Shown here piece by piece: positions 41,770-48,940 of a stretch of DNA of 64,000 nucleotides. Made by a program: the position numbers and the translations under genes. Within the stretch, counting starts at the first letter, position 1. Each line of letters begins with the position of its first letter. This stretch comes from Eledone cirrhosa (Eukaryota). The notes below the pieces were generated by a model, which saw only the letters and a program-made list of their open reading frames with translations, had not been told where the DNA came from and did no database searches. Where the stretch lies: assembly GCA_964016885.1 (NCBI GenBank), contig OZ024741.1, positions 67,332,001 to 67,396,000 on the forward strand, in the 5' to 3' direction.

Positions 41770-42166
41770 CATACAGTGTATTGCAAAATACACTATATAT
41801 ATACATTCATATATATATCGCTATTTCAGAGCACCAATTCTAATTTTCAATTTCTGCTTGACCGACAACCGTTCTGTATAATCAGTTCCTGATTATTACT
41901 AGAATTCTATAAGAACCAAACATTCATGATTTTCAGCAAACAGGCGGAGTACTTAGCTTTGATAAGCACCAAAAAGTGCAAAACAGGGCTCTGTCAGCTT
42001 TATCTCCCCTGTTTGCTGAAAATTAAAGTAAGTGAGACTGTCACTACTCTAAAATAATAGCGTAAGGTCTTCGAAATGATTTTAATTAAGCATACAATGT
42101 ATTGCAAAATACACTATATATACATTCATATATATATTGCTATTTCAGAGCACCAATTCTAATTTT
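41770..42166 (+). mobile_element. Retrozyme-like element family A, copy 1 (321-bp unit plus ~75-bp terminal redundancy)
   Basis: 41770-41847 repeats at 42091-42166. Contains an internal HHR. Flanked by (TA)n. Homologous along its length to 48572-48940. Confidence 0.8.
41930..42022 (+). ncRNA. Type I hammerhead ribozyme, U3:A8 core, G12A lesion
   Basis: agct-TTGATAA-GCAC(caaaaa)GTGC-AAAA-CAG(ggct)CTG-TC-agct. Extended stem I TTTTCAGCAAACAGG/CCTGTTTGCTGAAAA. Confidence 0.8.
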
Positions 42167-43143
42167 ATATATATATATATATATATATATATATATATAT
42201 GAACACGACGGAACTGTGCAGTAGTATTGAACCCGAAACGACGGATTGCAACAAGATGTCCGGATACACACACCAATGCTTAAGCATATAGTGGCCTCTC
42301 CCGTTGATTTCGACGTATGAAGATCCATTCAAACACCCTTTGCAGTTCATTCCGTTTTGATGTTTATAACAGGCATGATATTTTGACACGCCAAGTAATT
42401 GCAAGCAAGTCCACAGATCATGCATGGATGAGGTTTGCAGGACAATGTCGCTGGTATGTTTGATAATGGTTTTTTCCTCCCTCTTGTATATTGTAGCCTA
42501 TGTATACAAAGGATTCAAAGTTCCTGATCCCATTATGAAAAAGATCTCCGCTGCAAGGCCACTTGTTGAAATATCTCATTAGAAATATTGGTTGCTGAAA
42601 GATTACACTTCGTCCTGTCTTATTAAGTCGGCCAAGGCCACTCCTGCGTACTGATTATCTCCAATCTTGCAGTTAGTGAAGGGGTCAGTTTAAGATATTT
42701 TATGAAACGCATGGTTAAACATTCAAAGAGAAAATATCTAACTCTGGCCTTTTCACATATACAGTCCCCATATATATATATATATATATATATATATATA
42801 TATATATATATATATATATATATATATATATATATATACGAAGACATGTCAGGCTAAAATTTGTTTGTGTGAATCAATGTGCAAACACAGTATATAAGGA
42901 GGATTGTTTACCAAAGTATTTCTTGCCTAGTCGATTGTTTTTCATAGTACTATACTTTTATACACCCACGTGTGCGCGCACACACACACACACACATATA
43001 TATATATATATATATATATATATATATATGTGTGTGTGTGTGTGTCTGATGTCAACATGAATGGACCTGTTATTTTTATCTAAAGACATTTTTTCCAATT
43101 CCAAGCCACCCGTCCCTTCAATATATCTTATTTCTCATTCTTT

Positions 43144-43177
43144 CTTCTGATGAAAGACTAGCGACCGAAATGTCAAG
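43144..43177 (+). ncRNA. Minimal type I hammerhead motif (Penelope pLTR type), eroded stem II
   Basis: ctt-CTGATGA-aagactagcgacc-GAAA-TG-TC-aag. Related to the motif at 52926-52958. Confidence 0.6.
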
Positions 43178-43320
43178 TCCCTCTTCCTGCTATTTCAAGC
43201 GTTAACCTAATATATTCCTTTCATATACTGTTCCGATTGTGTTGTTATTTCTGTTTACCATTTACATATATATATATATGAATATATAGACGTAAACATA
43301 TATATTTTAATAGTACGACG

Positions 43321-43395
43321 GGCATTGGGTGTGTGGTGGCTGCAGACATTGTGTAGAAATCTGTTGATCGGGTTCAATGCCACCGCAGAGTCCCC
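43321..43395 (+). mobile_element. tRNA-like short repeat; related inverted copy at ~42205-42280
   Basis: GGGTTCAATGCC B-box-like motif; the two copies align by eye. Confidence 0.5.
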
Positions 43396-43450
43396 TCTTG
43401 TTTATATATATATATAGAGAGAGAGAGAGAGAGGATAAGAGAGAGAGAGA

Positions 43451-44757: not shown

Positions 44758-44955
44758 ATATGAAAGGATTCATCACCCCGACTACTGAGCTCAAGCCCTT
44801 TCGATAGCTAGAACCTAAATAGTTCGGAGCTAGCTGTCGAAACGGCCGGAGCTCAGCCGTCGGGATCCTGAATCCTTTCATATTATCCACTCTACTATCC
44901 CAAGTACTCTGATGTGTTATGGTCTAACTGGTATCTTACCACATCCTATTTGTTA
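44758..44955 (+). mobile_element. Fold-back element family C, diverged copy
   Basis: Imperfect palindrome 44758-44883 plus a tail homologous to 53557-53635. Confidence 0.75.
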
Positions 44956-45100
44956 TACACACACACACACACACATATATATATATATATATATATATAT
45001 ATATATATATATATATATATATATATATATATATATATATATATATATACATATATATATATATATATATATATATATATATATATATATATATATATAT

Positions 45101-45305
45101 ATAACGAAGGAAATGTGGTAAGGAACCAGGTGGACCATAACGCACCAAAGTACTGAATACTTAGGGTAGTAGAGTGGGTAATAGGAACAAGTAAGACCCC
45201 GACGGCTGAGCTCAAGCCGTTTCGACGGCTAATTCTGGACTGAATGTCCAGAATTAGCCGTCGAAACGGCTTGAGCTCAGCCGTCGGGGTCTTACTTGTT
45301 CCTAT
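45101..45305 (-). mobile_element. Fold-back element family C (60-bp perfect arms, 5-nt spacer, ~80-bp tail) in (TA)n
   Basis: Arms at 45181-45240 and 45246-45305. Confidence 0.85.
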
Positions 45306-48300
45306 ATATATATATATATATATATATATATATATATATATATATATATATATATATATATATATATATATAAGTATATATCCACATATAGAAATGTATA
45401 TATATATATATATATATATATGTGTGTGTGTGTGTGTGTGTGTGTGTGTGTGTGTGTGTGTGTGTGTCTGTGTGCGTGTGTGCATATATATATATAGAGA
45501 GAGAGAGAAGGAGAGATAGAGAGAGAAAGAGGGGGGAGAGGGAGAGAGAAAAAGCTATTAAATTAGCGGCGGTGTTTTTGCTTTGGTTGATGTATACGAA
45601 CATCATTCATTGAATATTTTGTAAATTATGTTTTCAGTAAGATATTAAACCAATGGCATTGTCAGACCCTTTCAAAATTGTGTTGTGCTACTGATGGTCG
45701 GCATCATTCCGTTCAAGCTGCTACATATCGATGATTGCAGTAATGCCATGTACATGGTTGTAAATTCCAGTGTAATTTTGTGATGAAGGATCTGTCTGTG
45801 GTTTCTACGGGACGAAGTTGATGTTACATAGCCTAGTGATTTATATGGGACTTTTGCTTTGAATACACATTACGGTAGAGAGACGAGCAATGACGATTAT
45901 TAGACAAAATCTATATGGAGCTCACAGGTTTTATTGCGGTACAGAGAGAGACAGATTTCCGAGACATTATGTCTGTGATCCAAAATTTAGAGCGTGTCTC
46001 TTTACAATGTCATTCCGATCAATCAGATGTCTTCTATTTCTTTGTATTCTCTGCTATTTAAACAACAGCAGCACAATGTGGTAGTGTTACGCAAATGTGT
46101 CTGTAATTGTAATGTAGGTGGTTAATAATTGTTGGGAACTTAAATATTTTCTAGAAATAAAAGGGAAAGGAGAATGTTTGAAGATACTGGTTTTAGTAAC
46201 TCGTAAAATTCTCATCTTGTATATTATACCTATGATAAAATGTAATATAACTGTGACATTTCTGTTCTCCTTTTAGCAAGTATATGTGGAAGCAATCTAA
46301 TATGTTCTTTCTTTGTTTAAAATTGAGCAATTTGAATACGATTTAGATCTGAAGGTGAGCGAAAGACACCTGGAACTGACTTTGTTGTGTGAAACAACAG
46401 AATGACTAGTATACAAAATCTTATATTAGTGAATGTAGGCCCATCCTGTTTCAGACATAAGACCAAACGAAGGCGAATTTCTGTGATCATGGCTTATGTA
46501 TCAACTCTGAAATATGATGTGGCTTTTCTGAGATGATTGTGCATCTGTTGCATAGGTTGTTCCTACAGTTTAACTTCATGACCTTTGTGATGTATGCAAT
46601 AAAAATCAAATATTCTGAGATAGTTATCATGAATATTTCCAATATCTGGCATTCGTGTCGCCAAGAGTTATGGTTGGGGTTCTTTACAGGAAATGGAACC
46701 GGAAGTTTTTGCGGATTGGATACTAAATCCTTAAGAAAAACTAGTGTCACCCTAAATAATGGAACCAGCTGGATGTTGTTACTATGCCCGCAGAAACATA
46801 ACTGCGATATCTTAAATTCTCGAATGCATCGCATTGCAGAATGAAATACGGACCTCAATGTGGTAATGAAATCTATGACATTACAACAAAAGCCAAACCA
46901 TTGTTTCCTTGCCGAAGAAGCAATCAACCAAGGTAGATATATAAAACACAACCGTATGTAAGATCCAAGAACCTACTGCAAAATCTGAATATACATACAT
47001 ACATGCATACATACACACAAAAATACACACACTTGTATATATATATATATATATATATAATTCAAGAAAGATTGACATGGTTCGCTATACAATAAGGCTG
47101 ACAATTGTTTCTTTGATCTGGCAGGTCTAGAGTTCGCTATACGCCTGATTTTGCGCCAATCAATCTCCAATACTTTGTTTATAACCAGTCTTTTTCATCG
47201 GATCGGGTGAAATGAAGAAAATACATAAGGCATGGTTTTTTTTATATAAGTGTGGTATTAAACCATAATATCAATAATAAAATAAAATAAAAAAAAACAG
47301 ATAGCATACAATTAAATTAATAACATCAATGTAAGTAAGAGATAGAGTATAATGGATAATCTAGCGTGTTAAACAGACTGATATGATACAGATGTGAAAT
47401 GACATGTGAAAACTGCTATGTCTTCAAAGTTACATCTATGTATGCACGCATGTAAGTATGCTGTACAGTATATATATATATATATATATATATATATACA
47501 TATATATATATATATATATATATATATATATATATATATATATATATATATATATATATATATATATATACACATATATATATATACATATATATATACA
47601 TATATATATATATATATATATATATATATATATATATATATATATATATATATATATATATGTGTGTGTGTGTGTGTGTGTGTGTGTGTGTGTGTGTGTG
47701 TGTGTGTGTACATATATATATATAGATATATAGATATATATATATGTATATATATATATATATATATGTACACACACACACACACACACACATATATATA
47801 TATATATACCTGTACACCATACTTACAACTTACATGCGTGCATACATAGATGTCATTTTGAAGACACATCCACATATTCGCCAAAGTTTTGCCTATCATT
47901 ATATTAACTCAACCACCCACACGTCTTCAAATCTAATAATTCCAGTATGTAATTTCTATAAGTTTATGACTCATTATCTCCATATATAATACTGCATATA
48001 TAATACTTATTCCACCTCCTTTCATTGCATGCATATATTTGTGATCGTTGCATGAATAATGTGTGAAGATTGAACATTGATGTTGTGTAAATAGCATGCA
48101 CAGATCTGGAAAATGAATAGAATATAAGAAGAAAAACAAAACAAAAAAAAAACAAGAAAGAATATCGAAAAGTTTGCGATGGCTCCAAGTAAAACACCTT
48201 GACATCTAGAAATTAGAAATCAGTTACATAGTCGTATTGATATTGCGAAAATAGTAGAGAATTTTCCGTACATTTTCTATTGTTCGATCTAAAGTGATAA

Positions 48301-48571
48301 AAGGATACATAATTAACTTGGTTAAATGCGTGTATATTTTAGTTTAGTAACGCGATGTGGTCTTTTTCTTGTTCTTGTTATTGTAGTTTTCTGTTAATTT
48401 ATGTCCTTATGATTTCTACCCCTAAATACATGCAAGCCTATACATTCAGCCACTCATCCATATATATATATATATATATATATATATATATATATATATA
48501 TATATATATACATGTGTGCTTGTTTGTGCAAGTGTGTGTGTGTATGTGTGTATAATATATATATATATATA

Positions 48572-48940
48572 TTTTAATTAAACATATGGTATATTTCCAA
48601 ATATACTATACATACATTCATGTATACATCGCTATTTCAGAGCACCAATCCTAATACCTATATTTTGCTGGACCGACAATCGCTCTGTATAATAAGCTCC
48701 TGATTATTACTGGAATTCTATAAGAATCCAGCTTCTATAATTTTCGGCGAAAGCAGGGGTGTACGTGACTCTGATGAACGCCAACCAGCGTGAAACAGAC
48801 TGTCAGCTTCTCTCCCTTCCTTCACCGAAAAGAAGTAAGTGACATAGTCACCACTTTAAAACTGATAGCGTATGGTCTTCTAAATGTTTTTAATTAAACA
48901 TACGGTATATTGCCAAATATACTATACATACATTCATATA
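48572..48940 (+). mobile_element. Retrozyme-like element family A, copy 2 (~316-bp unit plus ~50-bp redundancy)
   Basis: 48572-48620 repeats from 48888. Contains an internal HHR. (TA)n flanks. Confidence 0.8.
48741..48831 (+). ncRNA. Type I hammerhead ribozyme, canonical core
   Basis: CTGATGA(48771)-ACGC(caacca)GCGT-GAAA-CAG(a)CTG-TC-ag. Distal stem TTTTCGG/CCGAAAA. Confidence 0.85.

Follow-up and report, generated by a model that had tools for sequence, protein, structure and literature searches.

Two diverged copies, A and B, of a hammerhead-bearing repeat of about 320 nt lie in the 64,000-nt stretch of Eledone cirrhosa DNA analysed here (the window; contig OZ024741.1, positions 67,332,001 to 67,396,000). 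They belong to a real, abundant and fairly young family of retroelements whose insertions have the anatomy of a Penelope-like element (PLE). Very probably the element works like a non-autonomous PLE, and it is probable, if less firmly so, that the non-coding repeat is copied by a PLE reverse transcriptase-endonuclease from a monomeric RNA circle, which the hammerhead would make by cleavage and ligation. The features of the two copies are listed below, E1 and E2 being the two fixed 3' ends of the family's insertions.

41769-42166, plus strand: copy A, a single 398-nt arm of subfamily A (monomer positions 11-321, then 1-89)
42090-42166, plus strand: terminal redundancy of copy A, repeating 41769-41847
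41930-42023, plus strand: type I hammerhead of copy A, with extended stem I, UUGAUAA at 41959-41965, palindromic stem III and C17 of GUC at 41995
48572-48943, plus strand: copy B, a single 372-nt arm of subfamily B (positions 1-316, then 1 to about 58)
48888-48943, plus strand: terminal redundancy of copy B, repeating 48572-48629
48627-48663, plus strand: tail of about 30 nt between E1 (about 48626) and E2 (about 48663), internal to the unit, with loose TA ends behind 48626 and 48663
48741-48831, plus strand: type I hammerhead of copy B, with CUGAUGA at 48771-48777, stem II ACGC/GCGU, GAAAC and GUC, and a predicted cut after 48804

The family and its hammerhead

The window copies are, as originally described, non-coding, just over one monomer long and set in (TA)n, which is found at the ends of both; they are 77% identical. 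Copy A is 5'-truncated and terminates with its tail at E2. Its period is 321 nt, and its terminal redundancy (79 nt, 95% identity) contains a covarying hairpin, E1 and the tail as far as E2. Copy B terminates at E1, with a period of 316 nt and a redundancy of 58 nt (93% identity). In neither does the redundancy include the ribozyme, and the copies, each with a single ribozyme, are probably dead ends. Their greater-than-unit length had been read as fitting a circular template; the redundancy simply reflects the stopping point of a 5'-truncated cDNA, and such partial tandems are the ordinary form of Penelope-like insertions.

Across 64 genomic copies the proposed hammerhead fold is paired at 95.3%, against 31-49% for slid controls, and 11 of its 26 pairs have changed on both sides, a number equalled in none of 500 shuffles. 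The covariation of stem II and distal stem I first noticed in the two window copies thus extends to the family. Independent events are few, because most of the changes belong to the single split between subfamilies A and B; stem II also covaries inside subfamily A, in 8 and 2 sequences at two pairs. Even the core pair covaries, being U3-A8 in A (UUGAUAA in 41 of the 42 sequences parsed, from 52 examined) and C3-G8 in B, where the canonical core is present in 49 of 61 sequences. Copy A, with stem II GCAC/GUGC and the U3-A8 pair common to its subfamily, has a private G12A change at 41980. G12A cripples hammerhead cleavage, and given this change the copy A hammerhead is likely to be inactive. Copy B, for its part, mispairs in proximal stem I through a private change at 48768. 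It matches the Rfam model HH9 with an E value of 0.016 and 19.7 bits, under the gathering score of 52, and an Rfam scan of the whole window gave microsatellite-driven matches only, among the 150 matches listed of 170.

Subfamily A has a unit of 321 nt with a GC content of 0.34, and subfamily B one of 316 nt with a GC content of 0.39. At least 5,482 sites in the 3.0-Gb genome match exactly a 19-nt motif taken from around the tail, against 0 for a control; a single insertion can contain several. Divergence from the subfamily consensus is 2.4% for A (30 loci) and 4.1% for B (58 loci), in sets picked by likeness to the window copies. The longest ATG-initiated open reading frame (ORF) in the doubled unit is 45 aa, and a GTAAGT splice-donor motif falls inside a predicted hairpin. 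Arms with two to three ribozymes and an array of about 42 units exist in the family, although neither window copy is multi-ribozyme. The retrozyme label that the original prediction attached to the family holds on each of these properties: a predicted type I hammerhead, a short, low-GC, non-coding unit, and tandem copies. With its type I topology and no internal region, it is not a plant retrozyme with type III hammerheads in two long terminal repeats (LTRs).

Insertion ends and arms

Insertions have fixed 3' ends, which fall at either of two sites separated by about 30 nt: E1 near position 55 of the unit and E2 near position 88. When loci were collected with a query distant from both ends (positions 94-174), 21 of 25 copies terminated at E1 or E2, as did 27 of 28 and 30 of 30 in two other subfamily B sets; 5 of 30 and 2 of 30 loci had been dropped from the end sets as a window copy or as already sampled. 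Loose TA ends are also found at the places of E1 and E2 in contigs of four public runs, which come from one study and are possibly not independent of the assembly. The listed 3' flanks of family insertions are (TA)n, and the 5' ends are scattered. Since the 3' ends are fixed, the insertions are not circularly permuted, and permutation, proposed as a sign of a circular template, is ruled out. The multimeric insertions proposed alongside it are present, in arms of up to 2.7 units and in the array of about 42 units. Fixed ends with terminal inverted repeats (TIRs) or an internal ORF, either of which was to speak against a retrozyme, did not emerge.

A second, inverted arm was counted at 10 of 25 loci in one short-query set and at 13 of 28 in the other. 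In two-armed insertions of subfamily B, one arm ends at E1 and the other at E2 in 21 of 22 classifiable cases (binomial P 5.5e-6 at 50:50), with 12 further loci, each having one unclassifiable end, left out. The inverted ends are entire arms of variable length; this and the scattered 5' ends exclude a miniature inverted-repeat transposable element or another DNA transposon. The insertion anatomy is the footprint of a PLE, which makes the element an animal non-LTR retrozyme acting as a non-autonomous PLE. 'Retrozyme' and 'Penelope terminal repeat', originally set up as alternatives, are therefore not exclusive: the unit is a non-coding, self-closed retrozyme and has the Penelope footprint too. 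Neither the rule of one arm per start site, nor this family, nor any cephalopod retrozyme was found described in the literature searched, which was largely outside subscription journals.

The TA tract of copy B also holds a second, unrelated hammerhead family (window about 48950-49568, minus strand, core 49437-49431). Its 323-nt unit is present there as a partial tandem with an inverted arm, and a search gave 1,678 candidates. Of 20 loci of this family, 8 are two-armed and classifiable, and in all of them the arms are divided between two fixed ends, which lie about 37 nt from each other. Another hammerhead element adjoins this family and is 79% like it; more such families are likely in the genome.

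Enzyme, template and rival readings

The favoured mechanism would begin with transcription of multi-unit copies or arrays, cutting at successive hammerheads and ligation of the monomer, as the retrozyme class suggests (PMC7229834). A PLE protein, the putative enzyme, would nick both strands of (TA)n and start copying inside the RNA at two sites, one for each DNA end, which lie about 140 and 170 nt downstream of the cut site and are separated by 30 nt; this would give the ends and the one-of-each rule observed. Each cDNA would then extend upstream, pass the cut site and stop at random at about 1% per base, in keeping with the read-through and the stops that are found. The two arms would presumably be joined head to head, or one would be lost to leave single arms such as the window copies, both products being present in the genome. 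Features beyond copies A and B that bear on the enzyme and the template are these.

Window 51948-52560, plus strand: 5'-truncated PLE fragment with Hydra-like motifs, comprising the endonuclease C-terminus and part of the 3' untranslated region
L151, L152, L160 and L162: young family of Neptune-like PLEs, whose ORFs reach 938 aa and whose terminal repeat has a hammerhead of the minimal type with U3-A8
L250 and L258 (G000:C2, about 208.895-208.908 Mb): long subfamily A array of about 42 units and 13 kb, with mosaic variants and a 3' end interrupted by other sequence
L244:583-1210: one arm with 3.9 repeats of a ribozyme-less 163-nt unit, positions 138-291 missing

Co-resident PLEs with ORFs up to 1,096 aa also have two TA-joined ends, and the Atlas neighbours of two of their proteins are animal clusters, Mollusca among them. 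The Hydra-like family of the window fragment has 52,559 candidates, and loop 2 of its hammerhead is about 90 nt. Of the outer arms, 21 lack a standard 3' end. In one of them, L069, the element gives way, across a microhomology of 6 nt, to the final 74 nt of a PLE family that is highly abundant; the outer ends of this insertion are that family's normal TA junction on one side and E1 on the opposite arm. The family joined there has the CxCx5C linker and the CxxC/CxH motifs of Hydra clade PLEs (PMC8557442), and is Hydra-like by these motifs, not by tree. Arms L053 and L063 run on into different repeats, of which 65-76 nt are present before a TA end, and arm L064 into the 3' half of another hammerhead. 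Such chimeras are read as template switches within one insertion.

The predicted cut site is crossed by anchor arms in 23 of 25 and 20 of 28 cases. The 5' stops fall throughout, at a rate of about 1% per base, and are not in excess at that site (1 of 61 in B, 1.7 expected; 1 of 23 in A, 0.6 expected). Because arms cross the site and stops do not pile up there, a cleaved linear monomer is not the usual template. An apparent stop hotspot in the 3' arm of stem I is unsupported (11 in B against 6.3 expected, P 0.056; 1 in A against 1.9). Alleles agree within insertions in 105 of 109 comparisons for A and 30 of 35 for B, where 58% is expected; the comparisons use 4 and 3 polymorphic sites respectively and are not mutually independent. 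A C17-to-U change in 18 of 104 B units was considered as a ligation scar and rejected, as it tracks a sublineage (Fisher P 6e-11 with position 207). The ribozyme-less 163-nt array has a normal E2 end and mostly private mutations, and the only exact match to its 21-nt junction in the genome is at the locus itself. One pass around a small circle accounts for it most simply, although several later DNA rearrangements could also have produced it. The consensus circles fold with z scores of -8.0 and -7.9 (60 shuffles). A circular RNA template, the core of the original prediction, is thus favoured with fair confidence on shared haplotypes, cut-site read-through and the 163-nt repeats, if not on the permuted insertions that were to accompany it.

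More tentatively, and at somewhat less than an even chance, the process may be a twin-primed rolling-circle reverse transcription. Here a dimer of the PLE reverse transcriptase-endonuclease would let each of the two cut DNA ends prime on a single small RNA circle, at two staggered sites, so that the stretches copied overlap. In the course of one insertion it could also change template between the RNA of an autonomous Hydra-like PLE and the retrozyme, and it could roll round a ribozyme-less mini-circle.

A number of observations weigh against these proposals. Two-armed insertions of subfamily A comprise 13 mixed and 4 double-E2 cases among 17 classifiable (7 were unclassifiable), in a set selected for a tailed main arm and so biased to E2. 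No autonomous PLE with terminal homology to the element appeared in the 100 loci with PLEs that were compared, which sample a small part of the 10,597 GIY-YIG and 52,559 other endonuclease candidates. Besides two independent insertions of the element, the comparison yielded a single match, of 28 nt, linking subfamily A to the end of a Hydra-like PLE (L099, E 0.01); with a score of 39 against a shuffled maximum of 41, it was rejected. The chimeras could stem from later deletions between neighbours. At 2 of 21 multi-unit B loci the arms differ in haplotype (discordant at C17), and the antisense strand folds nearly as well (z -6.3 and -6.1, 60 shuffles). The 163-nt unit indicates that tandem copies can arise without a ribozyme, and the long array could supply linear multimers. 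Cleavage, ligation and the RNA circle are predicted from genomic sequence, and in experiments elsewhere an anole PLE used uncleaved RNA in vitro, its hammerhead being dispensable (PMC11167929), and 8 of 9 predicted Xenopus dimers failed to cleave (bioRxiv 10.64898/2026.07.22.740005).

Several of these points would suit the same Penelope-type machinery acting on another template: a linear multimer, transcribed from a tandem source locus and left uncleaved, in which the hammerhead is a passenger or at most trims transcript ends. Cut-site read-through is equally expected there, hammerhead activity was dispensable for insertion of the PLE PAc in vitro (PMC11167929), a ribozyme-less unit has been amplified, and one arm longer than a unit (L033) begins exactly at the cut site. 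A source of transcripts plausibly exists in the 13-kb array, in which the core is intact in 18 of 39 scored units and not intact in the other 21. Such a template is nevertheless unlikely. Units of the array are 9.7% apart, too mixed for linear copying into the homogeneous multi-unit arms dispersed in the genome; insertions have no fixed 5' boundary; the 163-nt array has no exact source elsewhere in the genome; and the ribozyme has been kept by compensatory changes, the core pair included.

That the copies are terminal repeats (pLTRs) of 5'-truncated autonomous PLEs is very improbable, even though the end anatomy would be identical. The unit is self-closed, its own 3' part lying upstream of the ends in arms of up to 2.7 units; it has no ORF beyond 45 aa and no homology to the PLE termini of the 100 loci. 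One of 113 upstream flanks (L034) does adjoin a PLE ORF, and the other 112 have no match to the PLE ORFs tested, the comparison with the Hydra-like family being at the DNA level. At L034 an inverted arm of Neptune-like type, with TA on its flanks, is followed by 273 nt from the interior of a PLE and then by the element, so that PLE and element meet tail to tail and the PLE is not the element's body. A satellite or other repeat whose hammerhead is a relic, and which spread as DNA through recombination or rolling-circle replication, hardly enters into consideration. The mosaic units of the long array would fit it, and it may describe the later history of that array; for the dispersed copies it is largely refuted by fixed 3' and random 5' ends, head-to-head arms and TA targeting, which are products of target-primed reverse transcription, and by inverted ends that are whole arms of variable length and not fixed TIRs.

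Elsewhere in the window, a 33-nt unit is repeated over 21 kb at positions 7-21423 (650 copies, 92% matches), and this array runs in frame into the C-terminus of an ORF like those of long interspersed nuclear elements (LINEs). Two broken LINE-type retrotransposons with RVT_1 domains follow at 26330-29756 (plus strand) and 30856-35466 (minus strand), putatively R4-like and L1/Tx1-like. A long inverted repeat (57612-58029 and 59915-60317, 97-98% complementary) surrounds 1.9 kb with a LINE-like fragment.

Relation to known systems

How animal retrozymes move, and how PLEs come to form tandem-plus-inverted insertions with a one-sided tail, are open questions, and a mechanism for the PLE insertion structure has been called for (PMC8557442). 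The Eledone family leaves footprints that can be counted: a start site for each DNA end, two in all; cDNAs that read through the ribozyme site; insertions of a single haplotype; and chimeras. Its 320-nt unit could serve as the substrate of an in vitro test, for which the same genome has long-ORF PLEs. Published work already covers the retrozyme class, its link to PLEs, the one-sided tail and the U3-A8 core, and the gain is in testability rather than kind. If twin-primed rolling-circle copying is correct, the genome holds direct fossils of circular-RNA retrotransposition and names a candidate helper enzyme for animal retrozymes.

Metazoan non-LTR retrozymes are described from coral, mussel and axolotl, with PLEs named only as candidate helpers in the available text (PMC7229834, Cervera and de la Pena 2020). 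The Eledone family resembles them in its non-coding unit within 150-450 nt, low GC content (34-39%), type I hammerhead, copy numbers from dimers to long arrays, self-paired fold and co-resident PLEs. Their circular RNAs and cleavage have been demonstrated, whereas the Eledone family is known from its genome. It also differs in the U3-A8 core of subfamily A, a pair reported in Schistosoma PLE hammerheads (PMC4209133), and in its anatomy, most copies being partial tandems at dispersed sites, with inverted arms and a pair of fixed ends; this anatomy is not among the features given in the available text of PMC7229834. Li, Clavereau and Pollet (2026, bioRxiv 10.64898/2026.07.22.740005) have argued, mainly for vertebrates, that animal retrozymes are non-autonomous PLE sequences in origin and are mobilised by PLEs, since the two co-occur and share pLTR homology. 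The Eledone element leads to the same conclusion, although no pLTR homology was found for it among the PLE loci compared and its case rests on the insertion footprint and a chimeric junction.

Non-autonomous PLEs of Chlamys, such as MRC1, likewise form pLTRs and are multicopy and head-to-tail; they resemble their partner at the 3' end, and most Chlamys elements lack canonical hammerheads (PMC8557442), while no partner homology was found for the Eledone element among the PLE loci compared. From the endonuclease-containing (EN+) PLEs the element differs in having no ORF, and in a long stem I and HH9-like loop 2 in place of the minimal PLE hammerhead. PLE insertions are known for 5' truncation, partial tandems, an inverted copy, a 30-40-bp tail that is often one-sided, and TA targets (PMC8557442), and a PLE protein has been found to extend both DNA strands, starting at two internal sites that bound the tail (PMC11167929). 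These are the traits that the Eledone element shares with the EN+ PLEs Neptune, Hydra and Poseidon PAc (PMC8557442, PMC11167929): 5' truncation, partial tandems and an inverted 5' copy, together with a one-sided tail of 30-40 bp, (TA)n targets and two internal starts downstream of the hammerhead.

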